Notes under the pieces: model-generated
What the model saw: only the letters and a program-made list of their open reading frames with translations
Databases searched by the model: none
What the model was told of the DNA's origin: nothing
Source: Candidatus Calditenuaceae archaeon HR02
GTDB taxonomy: Archaea > Thermoproteota > Nitrososphaeria_A > Caldarchaeales > Calditenuaceae
NCBI GenBank assembly: GCA_002898395.1
Contig: BEHE01000024.1
Coordinates: forward strand, 1 to 19,386
Length of the DNA stretch: 19,386 bases
Direction of reading: 5' to 3'
Translations under genes and position numbers: made by a program
In this document: positions 810-10,029 of the stretch, in pieces
How positions within the stretch are numbered: the stretch's first letter is position 1
Layout of the letters: every line of letters starts with the position of its first letter

Positions 810-1691
810 TTATCCAAGCTTGATGTGTCTGTCATGCCCATCTGTGGGAGGGTTAACGACTCTCTTAACCACTATGTTTTTTCCATGCTTTGATAGCGCG
901 GCCGAGACTGGTTCGACGTACTCTTGGGTGGTTATAGCCGCTATTGCGGGTCCTGTTCCAGTGACTCCAGCTCCTAGGGCACCGGCTGACAGGGCGTCTA
1001 TTATCGGCCGGGTTGGCAGGTTTAGGGCCGCCGCATGGAGTAGGCCATTGAGCGTCATTGCCCTCCAGTAGTCCCGGCGCTCCGCTATCTTGAACGCCTC
1101 CATGACCAAGTCTCTGATGGGCGCCAGTGTCTCCCTCCTGAAGCTCTTAGTGTATGTCTTCTCCGCGGGTATTAGAATTACGACGGCGAGGTCTTGGTCT
1201 ACTGCTTCGTGTCTGAGTATCTTTCTGCCGTAGTTATCTGTGAGGACTATGCCTCCAAGCATGCATGCAGCTGCATCGTCGATGGCCCCTGTTATCGAGA
1301 CGCCAGACCTCTGCGAGGCCTCCGCTACCGCTGCGAGGAACGCACCGATATCAGCCGTCTCCCCTAAGGCATCTAGCACTGCTAGGCCCACCGAGACTGC
1401 GGCCGAGCTTGAACTCTTCAGACCGACCGCTATAGGAATGTCTGACTGGGTTGTGACCCTGAAGCCCAAACCCTTAACCCCCGCAAGTTCCGAGACAGTC
1501 CTCACAACTTCTTTGACTAGCGAGTCATCACCTACAGAATCCTTGTTAACAAGCATGGTCTCGCCCCCCTCCACCACCTCCACATAAGCCCGCGTATAGA
1601 AGTCAATCCCCAGCGCGCCGCCAAACCCTGTAGAGATTGCATTGATTATTGAGACTGCGCCGTGGGCCTCGCCTACACCTCTTCTAACCAT
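810..1691 (-). CDS. aroK: Archaeal shikimate kinase (GHMP superfamily)
   Basis: GAVSIINAISTGFGGALGID, SDIPIAVGLKSSSSAA (GHMP P-loop), SITGAIDDAAACMLGG, GVTGTGPA; adjacent to an aro operon. Confidence 0.95.
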   Translation of the reverse strand: MVRRGVGEAHGAVSIINAISTGFGGALGIDFYTRAYVEVVEGGETMLVNKDSVGDDSLVKEVVRTVSELAGVKGLGFRVTTQSDIPIAVGLKSSSSAAVSVGLAVLDALGETADIGAFLAAVAEASQRSGVSITGAIDDAAACMLGGIVLTDNYGRKILRHEAVDQDLAVVILIPAEKTYTKSFRRETLAPIRDLVMEAFKIAERRDYWRAMTLNGLLHAAALNLPTRPIIDALSAGALGAGVTGTGPAIAAITTQEYVEPVSAALSKHGKNIVVKRVVNPPTDGHDRHIKLG

Positions 1692-1713
1692 TCCCGGCGT
1701 TTTCCTGTCTGGG

Positions 1714-1727
1714 AAAAAATATAAATT
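1714..1727. promoter_or_regulatory. Bidirectional BRE/TATA element for aroK (-) and the leader-asd-aro operon (+)
   Basis: AAAAAATATAAATT is the only AT-rich element in the 200-nt intergenic region. It reads TATAAA on + (~30 nt before ATG 1752) and TTTATA on - (~30 nt before aroK ATG 1691), spacing consistent with leaderless transcripts in both directions. Confidence 0.7.
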
Positions 1728-1751: not shown

Positions 1752-1841
1752 ATGAGTAGGGGGAGGGGCGTAGGTCGTAGCAACTCAACACCTCAAACGG
1801 GTACTACGACCTATGCCTATTTCTTTGGACCCACTGCTTAG
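1752..1841 (+). CDS. Putative leader peptide, 29 aa, MSRGRGVGRSNSTPQTGTTTYAYFFGPTA
   Basis: ATG 1752 to TAG 1839-1841, below the ORF-track cutoff. Codons ACT ACG ACC TAT GCC TAT TTC TTT (1803-1826) encode TTTYAYFF directly upstream of asd and the Phe/Tyr pathway operon. Confidence 0.65.
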   Translation: MSRGRGVGRSNSTPQTGTTTYAYFFGPTA

Positions 1842-1871
1842 TAGGTCCTCTTTCCCCCCTCCCCCCTGCTC
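1752..1871 (+). promoter_or_regulatory. Structured 5' leader RNA (three-way junction, candidate attenuator)
   Basis: P1: 1754-1766 with 1858-1871 (13 bp, one G-U, one bulged C). P2: 1767-1780 with 1804-1817 (14 bp, one G-U). P3: 1827-1835 with 1840-1848 (8 of 9 pairs), followed by TCTTT and C-tracts. The G-U pairs indicate the + strand. Confidence 0.75.
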
Positions 1872-1894
1872 TGCGGATGTGTGGTGGATGTATC

Positions 1895-2947
1895 ATGCCT
1901 AGGTTAGGTGTAGCTATACTTGGAGCGACTGGGATGGTTGGACAGATATACGTGCAGATGCTGAGCAGGCATCCGTGGTTCGAGATTAGAGCAGTAACGG
2001 GAAACTCGACAGTGGGTAAGACGCTCAGAGAGGCCTACCGAGGCAGAGGCTACGTACCGGAGAAGTATGCAGAGCTAGAGGTCCTCCCCTCCGATCCTTC
2101 TAAGATAGATGCTGACTTGGTCTTCAGCTGTCTTCCAGCCAAGTCTGCTAGGGAGGTTGAGCCCAGGTTCGCAGCTGCCGGCTTCCCAGTTGTAAGCGAC
2201 TCCTCAGCCCACAGATACCTGCCCGACGTCCCTCTAATCATTCCGGAGGTGAACCCGGAGCATCTCGACCTGATAGACGTTCAGAAGAGGAGGCGCGGCT
2301 GGGACGGATTCATAGTCACAACCCCCAACTGCACGACAGTCGGATTCGCTACCACACTCAAACCTCTAGCCGATGACTTCGGCCTAAGATATGTGAACGT
2401 CGTGACGATGCAGGCGGTGTCCGGAGCGGGCTACAGCGGCGTGCCGTCGATGGCCATTCTAGGAAACATTATACCCTATATTGAGGGGGAGGAGGTGAAG
2501 GTCTCCGAAGAGCCTAGAAAGATTCTGGGCAGGCTGGTAGACGGGGAGGTTCAGCCCATGGATGTTCCAATAGATGCGACATGTTTTAGGGTACCGACGA
2601 TTGTAGGTCACCTCGAATCAGTCCAGGTTGAGCTAGGGAGGGAGGTCGCTATAGGGGATGTTGTAGATTCTCTCGCAGGATTTATCGGGCTTCCTCAGAA
2701 GCTGGAGCTGCCGACCGCACCGCGGCGCCCAATATGGGTTTTCAGCGACGAGGAGAGGCCTCAGCCCAGGCTGGACTCGGATGCAGGCGAGGTGCCGGGA
2801 ATGGTTATCTCCGTGGGCAGGATTAGGAAGGGAAAGAAGCCGGAGACGGTGATGTTTGTCACGTTGAGCCACAATCTTATAAGAGGCGCCGCCGGCGGAG
2901 CTATATTGACGGCCGAGCTGCTATACGCTCTGGGGAGGTTGGATTAG
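1895..2947 (+). CDS. asd: Aspartate-semialdehyde dehydrogenase (archaeal type)
   Basis: ILGATGMVGQ, VPLIIPEVNPEHL, PNCTT (catalytic Cys), QAVSGAG, RVPTIVGH, HNLIRGAAG. Start at ATG 1895 preferred (SD-like GGTGGA 1883-1888); in-frame alternative ATG at 1877. Confidence 0.96.
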   Translation: MPRLGVAILGATGMVGQIYVQMLSRHPWFEIRAVTGNSTVGKTLREAYRGRGYVPEKYAELEVLPSDPSKIDADLVFSCLPAKSAREVEPRFAAAGFPVVSDSSAHRYLPDVPLIIPEVNPEHLDLIDVQKRRRGWDGFIVTTPNCTTVGFATTLKPLADDFGLRYVNVVTMQAVSGAGYSGVPSMAILGNIIPYIEGEEVKVSEEPRKILGRLVDGEVQPMDVPIDATCFRVPTIVGHLESVQVELGREVAIGDVVDSLAGFIGLPQKLELPTAPRRPIWVFSDEERPQPRLDSDAGEVPGMVISVGRIRKGKKPETVMFVTLSHNLIRGAAGGAILTAELLYALGRLD

Positions 2948-3747
2948 TGATGGTGACGGGGAAAAAGGTCAGGCTTTCCAGACTAACCGAGCGGGGTAGG
3001 ATGCTTTGCATTCCCATGGACCATGGAATAACCGCTGGGCCGATGAAGGGGCTTGACACGATCTATCAGACGATTCGTGAGGTGGAGAAGGGTGGGGCCA
3101 CAGCATTCCTAGTCCAGAAGGGGATAGTGAAGCACATGCCTGACCCTCCGCGGATCGGGTTCATAATCCATGTCTCTGGAAGCACTTCGCTGGGCCCAGA
3201 CCCCAACTGGAAGGTTCGCGTCGGAGGTGTTCAGACCGCACTACTACTGGGCGCCGACGGTCTCTCTGTCCACATAAACATCGGTAGTAAGGCTGAGCCC
3301 GAGATGCTTAGGAAGCTCGGAGAAGTGGCCGACGAGTGCGAGTCCTGGGGTGTCCCGCTGATCGCTATGATGTATCCGAGGGGCGAGGGGATTAAGGATC
3401 CGAATGACCCGAATGTTCTGATGCACGTCGCAAGGATTGGCGCTGAGCTGGGGGCCGACATAGTAAAGGTGCCCTATAGTGGAAGTGTAGAGACTTTCAG
3501 ACGGGTTGTGGAGGCCTGTCCGGCCCCAGTCGTCATGGCGGGCGGTCCAAAGATGGATGACGACCTGGCGGTCTTGAGGATGGCTCGTGAGGCTATGGAT
3601 GCAGGGGCGATGGGGGTGACGATAGGTAGAAACGTCTTCATGCACGGGAGGCCGGCGGCAATCGTCAGGGCGTTACGCGCAATAGTAATCGAGGATAGGA
3701 GTGTAGAGGACGCTCAGAGCCTGCTTGGACGTGAGGTTAGGGGTTGA
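2947..3747 (+). CDS. aroA': 2-amino-3,7-dideoxy-D-threo-hept-6-ulosonate (ADH) synthase, DhnA-family class I aldolase
   Basis: PMDHG, HVSGSTSLGPDPNWKV, MMYPRG, ELGADIVK (Schiff-base Lys), AGGPK, GRNVF; lies between asd and DHQ synthase II. Confidence 0.92.
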   Translation: MMVTGKKVRLSRLTERGRMLCIPMDHGITAGPMKGLDTIYQTIREVEKGGATAFLVQKGIVKHMPDPPRIGFIIHVSGSTSLGPDPNWKVRVGGVQTALLLGADGLSVHINIGSKAEPEMLRKLGEVADECESWGVPLIAMMYPRGEGIKDPNDPNVLMHVARIGAELGADIVKVPYSGSVETFRRVVEACPAPVVMAGGPKMDDDLAVLRMAREAMDAGAMGVTIGRNVFMHGRPAAIVRALRAIVIEDRSVEDAQSLLGREVRG

Positions 3748-4742
3748 GCCCAAACGAGCCGAAGGAGATAGTAATAGAGGTGTCCGATGAAAAGGAGGCT
3801 GAAGAGGCTGCAGCAGCCGGCGCCCCCACACTACTCTATACAGGAGGCGAGACGCCCGCAAGTCTGAAAGCCCGTGCAAAGATATACTCTCTCGGCAGAG
3901 AGATAATCTCCGTCAAGGTCTCCAAGCCTGGAGATATTGACGAGGTGGCCCGGCTAGCGCGGACTGGGGTCGGGTCCATACTTGTGGAGACAGCAGATAT
4001 TAAGATTATTCCATTGGAGAACATCCTAGCTAGTCTTCAAGGGTCTGGGACGAAGGTTTACGTGAGGATTGGGAGTGTCGAAGAGGCTGAGGCTATGCTA
4101 GGGGTGCTTGAGAAGGGTGTTGACGGGGTTGTCTACAGACCATCTAGCCCGAGTGAGATAGGTCTTCTCCTCGACCTCCTGAGGCAAGTAAGGAGGGTTG
4201 AGCTAAGGTCTGCTAGGGTGACCGATGTCTTCGATGTTGGTATGGGTGAGAGAGCGTGTGTTGACACAACATCAATGCTGAGGTATGGTGAGGGGATGCT
4301 TGTGGGCAGCATGGCGAGGATGCTCTTCCTAGTCCACAACGAGTCTGTTGGTTCGAAGTTCACACCACCAAGACCCTTCAGGGTCAACGCAGGGGCGGTC
4401 CACCTCTACACCCTGGGGCCGACCGGAAAAACGCTGTACCTCTCTGAGCTCAAATCTGGTATGCGGGTCCTGATGGTGTCTAGGGATGGTGCTGCGAGGA
4501 TTGTAACCGTGGGTAGGGTGAAGATTGAGAGGAGGCCGATGGTGCAGGTTAACGCCGAGACCAACGGAGTCTACGGCTCAGTAACTCTTCAGAAGGCTGA
4601 GACGATAAGGCTTCTGACAGCAAAGGGCGAGATAGTAGATGTCACCTCGCTCGCGCGGGGGGAGGAGGTGTTGGTCTGGCTCTCGAGCAAGGCTGCACGG
4701 CACATGGGTATGGAGGTAGACGAGTTCATAGATGAGGTCTAG
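3744..4742 (+). CDS. aroB': 3-dehydroquinate synthase II
   Basis: IIPLENILA, LEKGVDGV, GERACVDT, RPFRVNAGAVHLY, YLSELKSG, GRVKIERRP, LQKAETIRL, ARHMG; TTG start overlaps the aroA' stop. Confidence 0.95.
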   Translation: MSPNEPKEIVIEVSDEKEAEEAAAAGAPTLLYTGGETPASLKARAKIYSLGREIISVKVSKPGDIDEVARLARTGVGSILVETADIKIIPLENILASLQGSGTKVYVRIGSVEEAEAMLGVLEKGVDGVVYRPSSPSEIGLLLDLLRQVRRVELRSARVTDVFDVGMGERACVDTTSMLRYGEGMLVGSMARMLFLVHNESVGSKFTPPRPFRVNAGAVHLYTLGPTGKTLYLSELKSGMRVLMVSRDGAARIVTVGRVKIERRPMVQVNAETNGVYGSVTLQKAETIRLLTAKGEIVDVTSLARGEEVLVWLSSKAARHMGMEVDEFIDEV

Positions 4743-5445
4743 CCTCGCTGAGAAGGTCTGCGTCTCGATACTGCCCCGAAGTATCGGAGAGCTCAGACAG
4801 CTATGTGAGAGTGCCTTAGAGCTTGGGGCCAAGCTCATAGAGCTGCGCCTAGACGGTCTACAGGAGCTCGAGATGGGAGAGGCGGCAAAAATATCCAATG
4901 ACATGGGCTTCCGTAGGATCATCACACTCCGACCCAGCTGGGAAGGTGGGCTCTACGCCGGAGACGAGCAGAAGAGGCTTGAGCTTCTATCGAGTGTGTC
5001 TACGGGTGTAGAGTGTGTTGACTTGGAGTTTAAGACTATTGAGTCCAATCCTAGACTTGTCGAGGAGCTGAAGAGTTTGGGTGTCAAGGTAATCTCCTCC
5101 AGACACTATTTCAACGAGGCTCCTTCGAGCCTCGAGCTGCGGAGGATTGTTGCGAAGGGATTAGAGTCCGCGGATATAGTCAAGGTGGTCAATAATCCGA
5201 GGAGAGTGTCGGAGGCTATGGACGTCCTCGCGCTCTATTCTGAGGCCTCCTTCAGAGGTAGGGTCGTCGCGTTCAGTATGGGTGAGAGGTGGTGCCTCAC
5301 AAGGGTGCTTAGCATCTTGTTGGGTTCTCCCTTCACCTACGCATCTCTCCCCGGCCAGCCTGTGGCTCCGGGCCAGCCCAGCTTCTCCGAGGCCTTAGAG
5401 GCCTTAGAGGTGTTCCTAACAAGTTGGCCCTCCTGGCAGTTATAG
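4732..5445 (+). CDS. aroD: Type I 3-dehydroquinate dehydratase
   Basis: IELRLD, TLRPSWEGG, VDLE, SSRHYF (catalytic His), DIVKVV (Schiff-base Lys), FSMG, APGQ. Confidence 0.93.
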   Translation: MRSSLAEKVCVSILPRSIGELRQLCESALELGAKLIELRLDGLQELEMGEAAKISNDMGFRRIITLRPSWEGGLYAGDEQKRLELLSSVSTGVECVDLEFKTIESNPRLVEELKSLGVKVISSRHYFNEAPSSLELRRIVAKGLESADIVKVVNNPRRVSEAMDVLALYSEASFRGRVVAFSMGERWCLTRVLSILLGSPFTYASLPGQPVAPGQPSFSEALEALEVFLTSWPSWQL

Positions 5446-6263
5446 GCTACCCAATATCACACTCAGCCTCGCCAGTCATGCATAATGCGGCCCTACGCGC
5501 ACTCGGCCTCCCAAACCGCTACATAGCGATAGAATCCCACCCCGAGACGCTCCAGAAAACCTTGAAAACACTCCACAAACTCGGCTTCAAGGGCCTCAAC
5601 ATAACTATCCCACATAAAGAGGCAGCGGCCCGAGAGGCCGTTAAGCTCTCCGAAGAGGCCGAGGCGATAGGCGCTGTAAACACGCTTCAGAGGCTGGACG
5701 ACGGATGGGTGGGATACAACACCGACGTCGAGGGCGTTGAGAGGTGCTTATCGCCCCATGTTGAGGGACGTCTCAACAGGGTGCTGGTTCTGGGTGCCGG
5801 CGGCGCTGCTGCAGCTGCCCTCTATGCCCTTTGGAGGATGGGAGTTGAGAAGGTGATTGTGGCTAACAGGAGTAGGGAGCGGGCCGAGGTGCTAGCCAAG
5901 CGATTTAGGGACAAAGTGGGGCTTAATGTCCGAGTAATAGGGCTGGAGGAGGCCAGCCGTGAAGCGCGCAGTGTAGAGATCGTCATAAACGCGACCCCAC
6001 TCGGCATTACTTACCATGAAAGCATGATAGGCCCTGAAGACCTAACTAAGCACCACATAGTCCTTGACATGGTTTACTCAAATCTGCCAACGCCTCTCCA
6101 GAGAGCCGCCATCTCAACCGACGCATTGTATATCGATGGAGTGAAGATGCTTGTTGAGCAGGGGGCTAGGGCATTCAAGATTTTCCATGGAGTCGAGCCC
6201 GACAGGGCCTTGATGGAGAGGGCTGTTAGATCGTGGCTTGCACGGCGCGGTGTGCCGGGATGA
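5424..6263 (+). CDS. aroE: Shikimate dehydrogenase
   Basis: IGYPISHSASP, NITIPHK, GAVNT, YNTD, GAGGAA, NATPLG, GVKMLVEQG; TTG start. Confidence 0.96.
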   Translation: MALLAVIGYPISHSASPVMHNAALRALGLPNRYIAIESHPETLQKTLKTLHKLGFKGLNITIPHKEAAAREAVKLSEEAEAIGAVNTLQRLDDGWVGYNTDVEGVERCLSPHVEGRLNRVLVLGAGGAAAAALYALWRMGVEKVIVANRSRERAEVLAKRFRDKVGLNVRVIGLEEASREARSVEIVINATPLGITYHESMIGPEDLTKHHIVLDMVYSNLPTPLQRAAISTDALYIDGVKMLVEQGARAFKIFHGVEPDRALMERAVRSWLARRGVPG

Positions 6264-7531
6264 TCGTGAAGATTAGGGCAGAGAAGGTCTCCGGAGAGGT
6301 CAGGGCACCACCCAGCAAAAGCTACACGCACAGGTCCATCGCTGCTGCACTCCTAGCGCCGGGGGAATCTCGCATATATAACCCACTATACTCCCGCGAC
6401 ACTGAGGCGACAATCAATGCCGCAAGACTCTTCGGCGCGAGACTCCAATCCAAAAAGGATGAGGTCAAGGTCGAGGGTGTGGAGGTTCCCAAGACGCCGG
6501 AAAACGTCATTGACGCGATGAACTCCGGCACTACACTCAGAATTATGACCTGCATCGCAGGTCTCACCGAGGGGGGATACACTGTTTTGACGGGTGATGA
6601 GAGCCTCCGGAAGAGGCCGATGCAGCCCCTCCTAGAGGCTCTCGCCCAACTGGGTGTCAGGGCATGGTCTACAAAGCTTGATGGCACGGCACCAATAATC
6701 GTCGAGGGCGGAAGAATGGGTGGTGAGTGCGGTATCAGGGGCGATATTAGCAGCCAGTTCGTATCCGGCCTCCTCATAGCAGGCGCAGCCGCAGATAAGC
6801 CTCTAACGATCAACATTCAAGGATCCCTTGTCTCAAGGCCCTACATCGACGCCACGATAACAGTCCTCAGACTCTTCGGCGCCACAGTCAAGAGGGAGGG
6901 CTACAGCCGCTTCTATACAGAGCCTACCGGCTATAGGCCTGCAGAGTTCACGGTCCCAGGCGACTATGGCCTGGCCGGCTTCATAATGGCTGCCCCACTG
7001 ATGGCGGGTGGGAGGATCAGGGTGGCCGGCCTCGACCCTAAGCTTCCACAGGCTGACTATAGGCTGGTCGAAGTGCTGCGGGACATGGGGGCGCGCGTGA
7101 TAGAGGGCGATGGGTTTGTAGAGGTTAGCGAAGCTTCTCTAGCAGGAGTCGATGTTGACCTAAGGGACTCCCCGGACCTCCTACCCATAGTCTCTGTACT
7201 GGCAGCAGTCGCAGAAGGCGAGACGAGGATTAAAGGTGTTACGCATGCTAGGTTTAAGGAGAGCGATAGAATCCATGCGCTAGCCGTCGAGCTCGCCAAA
7301 GCATCAATCCACGTAGAAGAGACCTCAGACGGATTGACTATAAGGCCTGGGAAGTTGGTGAAGGCGCGACTAGACCCTAGAGGAGACCATAGACTATTCA
7401 TGGCATTTGCCCTTCTCTCACTGGCCACTGGAGGGCTTATCGAGGTCTTGGGCCCCGAGTCGGCATCCGTCTCCTACCCCAACTTCATGGACGACCTAAA
7501 GCTATTGGGATGCGAGGTTGAGATTTCTTGA
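6260..7531 (+). CDS. aroA: EPSP synthase (3-phosphoshikimate 1-carboxyvinyltransferase)
   Basis: PPSKSYTHR, NSGTTLR, SLRKRPM, SSQFVSGLL, SRPYID, KESDRI, DHRL. Start placed at ATG 6260 (ATGA overlap with the aroE stop) rather than track start 6233. Confidence 0.96.
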   Translation: MIVKIRAEKVSGEVRAPPSKSYTHRSIAAALLAPGESRIYNPLYSRDTEATINAARLFGARLQSKKDEVKVEGVEVPKTPENVIDAMNSGTTLRIMTCIAGLTEGGYTVLTGDESLRKRPMQPLLEALAQLGVRAWSTKLDGTAPIIVEGGRMGGECGIRGDISSQFVSGLLIAGAAADKPLTINIQGSLVSRPYIDATITVLRLFGATVKREGYSRFYTEPTGYRPAEFTVPGDYGLAGFIMAAPLMAGGRIRVAGLDPKLPQADYRLVEVLRDMGARVIEGDGFVEVSEASLAGVDVDLRDSPDLLPIVSVLAAVAEGETRIKGVTHARFKESDRIHALAVELAKASIHVEETSDGLTIRPGKLVKARLDPRGDHRLFMAFALLSLATGGLIEVLGPESASVSYPNFMDDLKLLGCEVEIS

Positions 7532-8634
7532 GCGGAAACATCCTAGGTAAAAGGTTCGTGGTCGTGAGCTTCGGAGAGAGCCATGGCAGATGCGTCGGAG
7601 CGGTTGTGGACGGCTGTCCCGCGGGCCTGAAACTCTCTGAACAAGACATACAGACTCTCCTAGACTTGAGGCGGCCTGGACAATCAATCGTCACCACGCA
7701 GAGGAGGGAGGAAGACAAGGTGGAGATTTTAAGCGGGGTCTTCAACGGACACACCACCGGCGCACCAATCGCGATGCTCGTATGGAACAAGGACGTAGTG
7801 TCCAGAGACTACGACAAGGTGTTAGAGACGCCAAGGCCGGGCCATGCAGACTTAATCGCGAGGCTGAAATATGGCGGCTTCAATGACCATCGAGGCGGCG
7901 GCAGATTCTCGGGGAGGATAACGGCTGGCTTCGTGATGGCTGGTGCCATCGCCCTGAAGCTGCTGAAGCAAGCGCTAGGGGTAGAAGTTCTCGCCTACAC
8001 TAAGCGGATAGCAGGCATCGAGGCTAGGCCCCTCTCCATAGAGTCTATCAAGGAGAGGAGGTGGCTCAACGAGGTAAGATGCCCAGATGAAGAGGCTGCA
8101 GAGGCTATGAAACGCGCAATCCTCGAAGCCAGGTCCTCGGGTGACTCTGTAGGCGGAATTGTGGAATGCATAGCCCAGAATGTCCCACCATGCCTCGGAG
8201 AACCAGTATTCGACTCACTGGATGCTGACCTCTCAAAGGCACTCTTCAGCATCCCCGCCGTAAAGGGCATAGAGTTCGGAGCAGGGTTTAGGGCGGCCGA
8301 CATGAGAGGGTCGGAGCACAACGACCCACTTGGAATAATAGATGGAGAGGTCAGACCATTGACAAACAACGCGGGCGGAATAGTCGGTGGCCTCTCAACT
8401 GGCAGGGAGATAATCATTAGGGTGGCGTTCAAACCTGCGGCCTCTATATCGAGACCCCAACACACACTCAACATTAAGAAGAGGGAGATGGAGGAGGTTG
8501 TTGTGACGGGGAGACATGACCCATGCGTAGTGCCGAGGGCCGTCCCCATCGTAGAATCAGTTGTCGGCATTGTTCTCGCGGACCACGCCCTCCGGGCGGG
8601 CCTCATACCACCAGTCCTAAGAGGTGTAGAGTAG
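7528..8634 (+). CDS. aroC: Chorismate synthase
   Basis: FGESHG, RPGHAD, RGGGRFSGRIT, DSVGG, IPAVKGIEFG, GRHDPCVVPRA; TTGA overlap with aroA. Confidence 0.97.
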   Translation: MSGNILGKRFVVVSFGESHGRCVGAVVDGCPAGLKLSEQDIQTLLDLRRPGQSIVTTQRREEDKVEILSGVFNGHTTGAPIAMLVWNKDVVSRDYDKVLETPRPGHADLIARLKYGGFNDHRGGGRFSGRITAGFVMAGAIALKLLKQALGVEVLAYTKRIAGIEARPLSIESIKERRWLNEVRCPDEEAAEAMKRAILEARSSGDSVGGIVECIAQNVPPCLGEPVFDSLDADLSKALFSIPAVKGIEFGAGFRAADMRGSEHNDPLGIIDGEVRPLTNNAGGIVGGLSTGREIIIRVAFKPAASISRPQHTLNIKKREMEEVVVTGRHDPCVVPRAVPIVESVVGIVLADHALRAGLIPPVLRGVE

Positions 8635-10029
8635 TTGGGAAGGGACGAGATCCAGAGCCTGAGGGAGGAAATAAGGGTAGTGACAGAGGAGATTATTCGA
8701 GGCATAGCCAGGAGGAGGCAGCTGGCAGAGAGGCTAGGCGAGATAAAGAGGGCGCTGGGCTTAGACCCTGTTGACCTTGACGCAGAGTCAGAGCTTAGAT
8801 CCCAAGTAGTCAATGCGGCAAAGGAGATCGGCCTAGACCCTGAGACAGCCCAGAGGATGCTCAGCCTTCTCATCCAAGACGCGATACTCGTCCAGCAGCC
8901 AAAGACCAAGCCAAAGATAACCCACATGGACATCTTCAGGAGGGCCAAGCAGCTGGAGATTAGCGGCGAAAAGATATACCACCTCGAGGTCGGTGAGCCG
9001 GACCTAGGGGCTCCAGCCCGGGTCGCGGAAGCCCTAAGCTGGGCGGCCCTGAATGGCTTCGCAGCCTATGGTGAGGCTAAGGGTAGGCCAGAGCTGCGGG
9101 GCGCGATAAGAGAGCTCCTCCGTGAAAGGACCGGCGTAGACGTTTCGGAGGACCAGATAGTAGTCACTCCTGGCGGGAGATTCGCAGTATACTTGGCCGC
9201 GGCCTCCACACTGATGCCAGGCGACCAGGCCGTAGTCATAGACCCATCATGGCCGCTATACAAGCAGGTCATCGAGATGATGCATGCAAGAAGCCTAGTA
9301 GTACACTCCACACTTGAGGATGGTTGGCGGCCCAGACAAGACGTCTTAGACAAATTCCTCAAACAGAAGCCGCGGGTAGTGTTCATCAACTATCCCAACA
9401 ATCCCACAGGCATAACGCTAAGACGCAACGAGTTAGAGGAGCTTGTTGAAGATATAGGACGCACAGACGCATACATAGTCAGCGACGAGGTCTACATGGA
9501 CTACTGCTTCACAGACTTCACATCAACCCTCGAGATGGGGTATGAGAAGACCATAATGATAAACTCGTTCTCGAAGAGCTGGGGAATGACAGGATACAGG
9601 ATAGGATACCTCGTGGCGAGCAGGGAGATAGCGGACAGGGCTGCTAGAATCCTGTCCCAGCTAATAACATGCGTCCCCGAGTTTATACAAATGGCCTCAA
9701 TAAAGGCTATCGAGGATAGGGAGACGCCGAAGAGGTATGGCGACATAATGAGGCGACGGATAGAGATGGTGTGTAGAGAACTTGATAAAATCGGCGCAAC
9801 ATACGTAAAGCCTAACGGTGGTATGTACGTCTTCCCCAAGATTGGGGGCGAAGGGTTCGACTCGGCCGAGTTTGCCCTAAACCTTCTCGAAACTGCCAGG
9901 GTCGCGGTTGCCCCGGGCACGGCGTTCGGCAACTACCCAGAGTACATCAGGATATCAGTGGGCCTTGGGGAAGAAGACCTCAGGAAAGGGTTGCGAATGC
10001 TCGCTGAAAGTCTCCAGAAAACCCGGTGA
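8635..10029 (+). CDS. Fusion of an AroQ-type chorismate mutase domain and a class I/II PLP-dependent aminotransferase
   Basis: The first ~90 aa are AroQ-like (LREEI...IARRRQLAERLGEIKRALGLDPVDLDAE...VQ). The remainder has EVGEPD, NYPNNPTG, SDEVY, SFSKSWGMTGYRIGY (PLP Lys), YIRIS. TTG start immediately follows the aroC stop. Confidence 0.9.
   Translation: MGRDEIQSLREEIRVVTEEIIRGIARRRQLAERLGEIKRALGLDPVDLDAESELRSQVVNAAKEIGLDPETAQRMLSLLIQDAILVQQPKTKPKITHMDIFRRAKQLEISGEKIYHLEVGEPDLGAPARVAEALSWAALNGFAAYGEAKGRPELRGAIRELLRERTGVDVSEDQIVVTPGGRFAVYLAAASTLMPGDQAVVIDPSWPLYKQVIEMMHARSLVVHSTLEDGWRPRQDVLDKFLKQKPRVVFINYPNNPTGITLRRNELEELVEDIGRTDAYIVSDEVYMDYCFTDFTSTLEMGYEKTIMINSFSKSWGMTGYRIGYLVASREIADRAARILSQLITCVPEFIQMASIKAIEDRETPKRYGDIMRRRIEMVCRELDKIGATYVKPNGGMYVFPKIGGEGFDSAEFALNLLETARVAVAPGTAFGNYPEYIRISVGLGEEDLRKGLRMLAESLQKTR

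Follow-up and report, generated by a model that had tools for sequence, protein, structure and literature searches.

A probable ribosome-sensed leader peptide upstream of the asd-aro operon of a Calditenuaceae archaeon

The 19,386-nt stretch of DNA analysed here, referred to as the window, comprises positions 1 to 19,386 of contig BEHE01000024.1 (forward strand; assembly GCA_002898395.1) of Candidatus Calditenuaceae archaeon HR02. Positions 1752-1894 precede an operon for aromatic amino acid synthesis that opens with asd, and we consider it probable that they form the 5' leader of the asd-aro mRNA and act as an amino acid sensor read by the ribosome through a leader peptide. As judged by comparison with relatives, the aromatic codons of this leader are under coding selection and its RNA helices are also under selection, the two being interlocked; the stalling of the ribosome, its sign and its output are what we infer. 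The initial annotation, made from the single sequence, had proposed a translated leader open reading frame (ORF) with Tyr/Phe control codons, and this core idea finds support in comparisons at the level of the family, the order and the phylum.

Leader ORF, aromatic codons and RNA fold in the family

Re-reading of the sequence returned exactly the ORF that had been described, which starts at 1752, has 29 codons and ends 53 nt before asd, counted from the leader stop codon to the asd ATG (1895-1897). The Y-A-Y-F-F cluster at 1812-1826, again as first reported, holds the sole aromatic residues of the predicted peptide. The elements of the leader are as follows.

1752..1841, plus strand: leader ORF of 29 codons (ATG 1752-1754, 28 sense codons, TAG 1839-1841), from the sequence and its conservation
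1812..1826, plus strand: aromatic cluster of putative control codons, TAT GCC TAT TTC TTT (Y-A-Y-F-F), from the sequence and the family alignment
1754..1767, plus strand: 5' strand of helix P1, G-rich, pairing with 1857-1871, from the fold
1857..1871, plus strand: 3' strand of P1, C-rich and resembling an anti-Shine-Dalgarno (anti-SD) sequence, from the fold
1768..1816, plus strand: helix H1, 1768-1780 with 1804-1816, enclosing a variable loop, from the fold and the alignment
1827..1848, plus strand: H2, a hairpin around the leader stop codon, from the fold

The source genus is denoted g1, and its family, Calditenuaceae (Aigarchaeota), is denoted f1 and includes the sister genera g2, g3 and g4. 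The order sample comprised 76 genomes, and the class sample held the same 76. DNA similarity located the leader in all seven other genomes of g1, and two covariance models (R1 and R2) added all three genomes of g4 and six of the seven of g2, the element being found in f1 only. The single genome of g3 has a diverged copy upstream of asd which was missed by both models. One bin (G017, 73% complete) yielded neither a leader nor an asd match, and the family counts refer to the 18 genomes holding asd. A weak match of R1 in G048 (E = 0.07), apparently within coding sequence, was dropped.

In all 18 genomes the aromatic frame is open, with an in-frame start and the cluster kept. The start itself differs between genera, being a 5'-terminal ATG in all eight genomes of g1, ATG in three and GTG in three genomes of g2, ATG in g3 and GTG in the three genomes of g4. 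The starts of g2, g3 and g4 fall within the H1 5' strand, and the 5' strand of P1 precedes them by 5-6 nt as a G-rich, SD-like run. The position of the g1 ATG reads AAG in g4, showing that the start was relocated between genera and the aromatic frame retained. The columns of the cluster hold TAT, TAC, TTC or TTT only, so that variation falls on codon positions 2 (T/A) and 3 (T/C) and never on position 1; the same restriction to positions 2 and 3 was found at the aromatic columns of g9 and g14, two genera of the order described below. In one genome Y-F-F is replaced by F-Y-F.

The lack of a Trp codon had been taken as the mark of an operon for the Phe/Tyr branch. This argument fails in the family, as Trp codons are present in 13 of the 18 leaders (five of the eight in g1) and the operon includes the genes of the common pathway to chorismate as well. 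The Trp codons fit a chorismate-making operon rather than the Phe/Tyr branch. Sensing of threonine by the T-T-T run was considered and rejected, since the run is found in six of the eight g1 genomes, where it forms part of the H1 stem, and one or two Thr codons are found in g2, g3 and g4.

The region 1740-1900 folds with a predicted energy of -76.7 kcal/mol, compared with -51.5 ± 4.2 kcal/mol for 200 shuffled sequences (z = -6.0, 0/200 as good). The predicted fold of the leader is a three-way junction of Y shape, in which P1 is the closing helix and H1 and H2 are the two arms. P1, which the initial annotation lacked, has a core of 10 pairs; these are 96.9% paired across 16 sequences, and two of them show changes on both sides; C-to-U changes in the 3' strand are tolerated as G-U pairs, and the 5' strand constitutes the SD-like element of the leader ORF in g2, g3 and g4. 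A 14-bp stem with the first Tyr codon in its 3' arm had been noted initially, and the fold bears it out as H1, a stem of 13-14 bp (1767/1768-1780 with 1803/1804-1816). Its 3' strand bears the Thr codons together with the first Tyr codon, its 5' strand bears the leader start codon in the sister genera, and its 14 pairs are 88.8% paired, five with changes on both sides. The arms of H2 vary in sequence between genomes with complementarity retained, and the stop codon is enclosed by at least five local pairs in 17 of the 18 f1 leaders, lying strictly in the terminal loop in seven.

Over the alignment of 16 sequences, the P1 core and H1, 24 pairs in all, are paired in 92.2% of cells, against 44-51% when the partner strand was slid. 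Seven of these pairs changed on both sides, and none of 500 shuffles reached the covariation score. Many of the changes in H1 and P1 are exchanges of G-C or A-U with G-U, which are compatible with an RNA of the plus strand only. In addition, the 143-nt leader is 69-92% identical within g1, compared with 49-77% at the third codon positions of asd, and this conservation begins at the predicted 5' end of the transcript. Rfam gave no match at gathering score over the whole window, and the matches in 1690-1910 (seven microRNA families and one lncRNA family) were at chance level (E ≥ 1.7). The tRNA scan found none, and a genome-wide search for copies indicated that the element is single-copy in the 1.73-Mb assembly and belongs to no repeat or mobile element.

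Transcription of the leader was considered together with the signals flanking it, which are listed with the operon.

1713..1727, plus strand: promoter, an A-rich stretch resembling a B recognition element and a TATA-like octamer (1720-1727), from the sequence
1883..1897, plus strand: asd ribosome-binding site GGTGG (1883-1887) and start codon ATG (1895-1897), from the sequence
1895..10029, plus strand: eight-gene aromatic operon, from the ORF list, Pfam and NCBIfam

A TATA box upstream of the leader ATG had been noted, and it was confirmed as the octamer at 1720-1727 preceded by the A-rich stretch. The TATA block is kept in all eight genomes of g1, the rest of the upstream 60 nt showing 35-87% identity. 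With the usual archaeal spacing between TATA box and start, the transcript is expected to begin at about 1750-1752, so that the leader ORF would be leaderless or nearly so. Downstream, the ATG and SD block of asd are likewise kept in all eight genomes, and asd is 76-92% identical within the genus. An ATG at 1877, in frame with asd and opening the predicted ORF, is replaced by CTG or GTG in other genomes of g1; as it is not conserved in the genus, 1895 is the likely start of asd. The operon comprises asd, ADH synthase (aroA'), DHQ synthase II, aroD, aroE, EPSP synthase, chorismate synthase and a chorismate mutase-aminotransferase fusion. Its first and last genes had been named correctly from the sequence, as Pfam and NCBIfam matches confirmed.

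Aromatic leader ORFs in the order and phylum

The genes asd and aroA' are adjacent throughout the genomes tested, and ask precedes asd in families f2 and f3 and in part of f4. Upstream of ask-asd-aroA', unrelated aromatic-rich leader ORFs were found in 23 of the 40 other genomes of the order. They have no alignable similarity to the f1 leader, consist of 17-26 codons ending in aromatic runs and lie upstream of aspartate kinase, at 38-95 nt (in most cases 56-95) from the KxGG motif close to its start. Their distribution over the genera is as follows.

g9: ORF in 8/8 genomes
g14: ORF in 3/3 genomes
g6: ORF in 7/7 genomes
g10: ORF in 2/2 genomes
g11: ORF in 2/2 genomes
g12: ORF in 1/1 genome, read by eye and without a canonical start
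g7: ORF in 0/12 genomes (L114 and L119 included)
g5: ORF in 0/3 genomes
g15: ORF in 0/2 genomes

That relatives would keep an upstream ORF had been anticipated, and both orthologous and non-orthologous leaders indeed keep an aromatic-rich one despite nucleotide divergence. In shuffle tests on representatives of the order, an equally rich ORF arose in 0/2000 to 249/2000 shuffles, with 0-34/2000 in the representatives of g9, g14 and g10 and 27/2000 in one of the two representatives of g11. The phylum sample held 40 loci from other families, of which 39 were evaluated; L179 was dropped, as its gene chain reaches the end of the locus. Outside the order, 14 of 24 ask-led operons have an aromatic ORF at no more than 25/500 shuffles, compared with 0 of 15 aroA' loci without ask, and one of these ORFs has the same type of ending as the g1 ORF. 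Leaders of this kind occur in three or more families of Caldarchaeales and in seven or more other families of the phylum.

The pairing of the leader ORF with its own start region also recurs. The SD/start region of the leader pairs with the aromatic codons in f1 (through H1) and in g9/g14, and with a C/U-rich strand at or just past the stop codon in f1 (through P1), g6, g10, g11 and g12. In 10 of the 11 g9/g14 leaders a GC hairpin of 7-10 bp carries the stop codon in its loop. In f13 and f20 a strong hairpin directly follows the stop, and in f20 a run of U comes after it; this arrangement of hairpin and U-run is present in f20 and g9.

These comparisons bear on two other functions that a translated leader could have. 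The peptide might sense free aromatic amino acids while nascent in the exit tunnel, with a TnaC-like arrest near the stop codon, a scheme that would agree with the position of the aromatic cluster, always in the last ~10 codons, with a C-terminal motif that is fixed in each lineage (such as the FWSY.YFALA type of g9/g14) and with the special context of the stop codon in a hairpin loop. We regard it as unlikely, because Y and F freely interchange and the motifs are wholly different between lineages that share the F/Y/W composition, which fits the sensing of codons better. The ORF might also encode an aromatic-rich micropeptide without regulatory function, such as a small subunit or a membrane peptide. 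Its conserved translatable frame at a fixed position and its lineage-specific C-termini are what such a peptide would show; against this, composition alone is common to the lineages, the N-terminal halves vary and lack hydrophobic character, RNA helices and the ribosome-binding regions of the operon are interlocked with the ORF, and the presence of the ORF tracks the ask-led aromatic operons in the proportions given above. A micropeptide is therefore highly improbable in our view, and the sensing of aromatic codons by a translating ribosome is the reading that we retain.

Two groups have a different arrangement upstream of the operon. In g7 (family f4, L105-L119) no ask precedes asd-aroA' and the 150-300 nt upstream hold no aromatic short ORF; a different control is possible there. 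Family f16 (L156, L157 and L174) shows an aromatic run in none of its three loci and has instead a conserved 36-aa ORF with a hydrophobic N-terminal half, about 85-89 nt before aspartate kinase.

Proposed mechanism, its output and its relation to known systems

Based on the family and phylum comparisons, we propose the following mechanism. Transcription would start at or within two bases of the ATG at 1752, and the 29-codon leader ORF would be translated. The Tyr/Phe codons at 1812-1826, to which relatives add Trp codons, would report the supply of charged aromatic tRNA. At low supply the ribosome would pause there, covering the 3' strand of H1 together with the 5' strand of H2, and would keep P1, H1 and H2 from adopting the Y-shaped fold that they take up when the leader is untranslated or has been read to its end. 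The changed fold would raise the expression of the operon. In g1 the most likely output is asd translation or the fate of the mRNA, acting by way of the C-rich 3' strand of P1, although our confidence in this output is much lower than that in the sensor. This strand would pair either with the leader's own 5' end, which is the ribosome-binding site in the sister genera, or, more weakly, with the asd SD.

The output was modelled by folding leaders with a ribosome masking part of the RNA. In g1, the unpaired probabilities for the asd SD were 0.61 and 0.51 in every state at 75 °C, and the masked folds do not support a simple switch by SD sequestration in this genus. Masking the 5' strand of P1 lowered the unpaired probability of the asd SD from 0.95 to 0.38 in g4, from 0.64 to 0.27 in g2 and from 0.61 to 0.47 in g1, the C-rich strand pairing with the asd SD in the g4 and g2 models and weakly in that of g1. 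Helices beside the leader stop codon that would occlude an SD are predicted in g10, g11 and part of g6 only. In G048 (g10), G047 (g11) and G020 (g6) the ask SD is buried in the free state (unpaired probability 0.00-0.03) by pairing with the strand next to the stop; placing a ribosome at the leader's end frees it to 0.51 in G048 and 0.66 in G047, but to only 0.11 in G020. The geometry in the models of G048 and G047 resembles that of erm and would act in the right direction. Outside g1 this sensor seems to be wired in other ways, either with an anti-SD strand by the stop codon or with the stop in or before a GC hairpin accompanied by U-runs.

The initial annotation had also likened the region to the bacterial pheL/trpL layout with alternative terminator and antiterminator hairpins. 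This part was not upheld, as no alternative helix was found and P1 is kept in the masked folds. A four-segment scheme of the trp type was rejected as well, because the 7-mer common to H1 and H2 in g1, through which alternative pairing would be possible, is not conserved in g2 or g4. The hairpin reported after the Phe codons does exist, as H2 at 1827-1848; the pyrimidine tract behind it is the 3' strand of P1 and not a terminator-like element, and from the stop codon to asd there is no run of four or more U.

Several observations weigh against the proposed sensor or against the steps that follow from it. With the ribosome masked at the cluster or at the stop codon, P1 stayed intact and access to the asd SD was unchanged in all five f1 leaders modelled, which leaves the output here without a simple thermodynamic switch to account for it. 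In g2 and g4, ribosomes queued over the 5' strand would, according to the models, give the wrong sign for a response to starvation. No pair of alternative helices is conserved across the genera. No oligo-U terminator is present in 1842-1894, where H2 is followed by the C-rich strand of P1. Oligo-U tracts mark archaeal termination, and their lack makes classical termination unlikely at this locus; factor-dependent termination by aCPSF1/FttA is conceivable. Among the 40 other genomes of the order, 17 (those of g7, g5 and g15) have no aromatic leader ORF. The hisG and trpE loci of the same genome carry no cognate leaders, and in this organism the element does not belong to a general regulon. Within g1 no synonymous change is seen in the 5' third of the ORF, which points to selection on RNA structure there, and the openness of the frame over that third cannot count as separate evidence for coding. 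Finally, at least four aromatic codons in a stretch of five are found in 32 of the 5325 intergenic short ORFs of the genome (0.6%), and dinucleotide shuffling of the leader produced an equally rich short ORF in 137 of 2000 cases.

The last two figures show that the codon cluster taken alone in one genome is not significant; its conservation is significant, and the case rests on comparison. An ordinary structured 5' untranslated region that happens to hold an open frame with four aromatic codons would be consistent with such weak statistics in a single genome, and its probability is close to negligible given the conservation and recurrence across family, order and phylum.

The invariance of the 5' third, synonymous sites included, speaks for a different explanation, in which the Y-shaped RNA is itself functional and is bound by a protein or a small ligand in the manner of an operator or riboswitch, the open frame being a structural by-product. 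The strong conservation and covariation of the structure, the onset of conservation at the predicted transcript start and the lack of a switch in the ribosome-masked folds would all be expected of such an RNA. However, variation in the unpaired junction strictly follows a T-[T/A]-[T/C] period of three bases, the frame was kept between genera although its start codon was replaced, the leaders of other families differ in sequence and fold and yet have an aromatic ORF, and no Rfam family matches. An RNA element acting without translation is thus quite unlikely, and a leader peptide read by the ribosome accounts better for the periodicity and the kept frame.

Ribosome-mediated attenuation by leader peptides is a textbook mechanism of bacteria. 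In ermC and cat, which are cases of translational attenuation, a ribosome stalled in the leader ORF opens a helix that hides the SD of the next gene. This geometry matches g10 and g11, in which the ask SD pairs with the strand that immediately follows the stop codon, and is not found in the present leader; moreover, the stall signal here would be the supply of an amino acid and not a drug. In Corynebacterium glutamicum a Phe-Tyr-Phe leader raises transcription of aroR-aroF under Phe limitation (PMC11802643), which provides a bacterial precedent for a leader with mixed aromatic codons. The present leader shares with aroR-aroF, and with pheL-pheA and trpL-trpE of Escherichia coli, a short leader ORF with a run of end-product codons, embedded in RNA helices, at which pausing is expected when charged tRNA runs short. 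It differs from aroR, pheL and trpL in its archaeal host and in that here no intrinsic terminator precedes asd and no alternative antiterminator was found. It also differs in that the g1 ORF is probably leaderless and the ORF's own start or SD is paired with the aromatic codons or with the strand after the stop. Leaderless short ORFs with polycysteine runs in mycobacteria are described as cysteine-responsive attenuators that act on translation through SD availability and not through a terminator (bioRxiv 10.1101/834739). Like these, the present ORF would be a leaderless first cistron with a run of end-product codons, but the amino acid and the domain of life are different and the g1 models show no change in asd SD access with the position of the ribosome.

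A full-text literature search, judged at overview level, returned no described archaeal leader-peptide attenuator, and the work found was bacterial, on plants or general. To our knowledge, the control of aromatic amino acid synthesis through the aspartate-semialdehyde/ADH route in archaea is largely unknown. That the element is an archaeal version of leader-peptide control is well supported by the comparisons. In a broader sense, we lean towards the view that aromatic leader peptides are a widespread, ribosome-based form of amino acid sensing native to Archaea that works without the bacterial terminator/antiterminator pair, in which the position of one ribosome would set both further translation of the leader and access to the first biosynthetic gene. 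If true, this would be the first amino acid attenuation mechanism described for Archaea and would offer a natural test bed for the coupling of transcription and translation in this domain. A conserved, sequence-defined sensor would give a testable handle on translation-coupled gene control in archaea and on the role of RNA structure at high temperature, and a leader that is leaderless in one genus and SD-led in its sisters would give one on the modes of initiation. It would also draw attention to small ORFs that are overlooked by gene callers and lack annotation.

Neighbouring genes and minor observations

The interval 1692-1894 is the gap between the plus-strand aromatic operon and a divergent gene, whose product matches NCBIfam TIGR01920 with 227 bits against a cut-off of 127.

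810..1691, minus strand: shikimate kinase of the archaeal type (GHMP family), divergent from the leader, with Pfam GHMP_kinases_N and _C

This gene does not always stand beside the leader. In G005 (L004) about 675 nt are inserted between the two, and in G002 (L005) and G001 (L009) no kinase gene lies within 1.5 kb upstream of the leader, which remains attached to asd. The host lineage (Calditenuaceae, Aigarchaeota) is known from metagenome bins only.

In g4 (L010:1570-1642, plus strand; L017, minus strand) a second short ORF of 15-17 codons lies between the leader and asd. It opens with ATG TCT after GAGGTG, and its TGA overlaps the asd ATG (ATGA). The bases at its 5' end align with the asd start of g1, and the start region of asd thus seems to have been displaced in g4.

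Elsewhere in the source genome (G000), a 24-codon ORF on contig C17 (27349-27423, plus strand) encodes F-Y-F-G-F-W-S and resembles the motif of g9/g14. It was rejected as a leader, because no ORF of at least 100 aa on the same strand follows for ~490 nt, the first such ORF (27915-28323) overlaps an ORF on the opposite strand and none is annotated. At trpE (contig C1, ~92591-92620, minus strand) two of the nine codons of a short ORF upstream of a conserved TATA box encode Trp; the ORF is not conserved in five relatives and was rejected as a leader, being probably due to chance. In the long trpE frame no canonical start codon is evident just after the TATA box. At hisG (contig C14, ~47215-47358, plus strand) the upstream region has no His run and contains a 47-aa ORF that by eye resembles the ribbon-helix-helix type (CopG/NikR-like), placed between a divergent gene and hisG, which is possibly a small regulator of the his operon.

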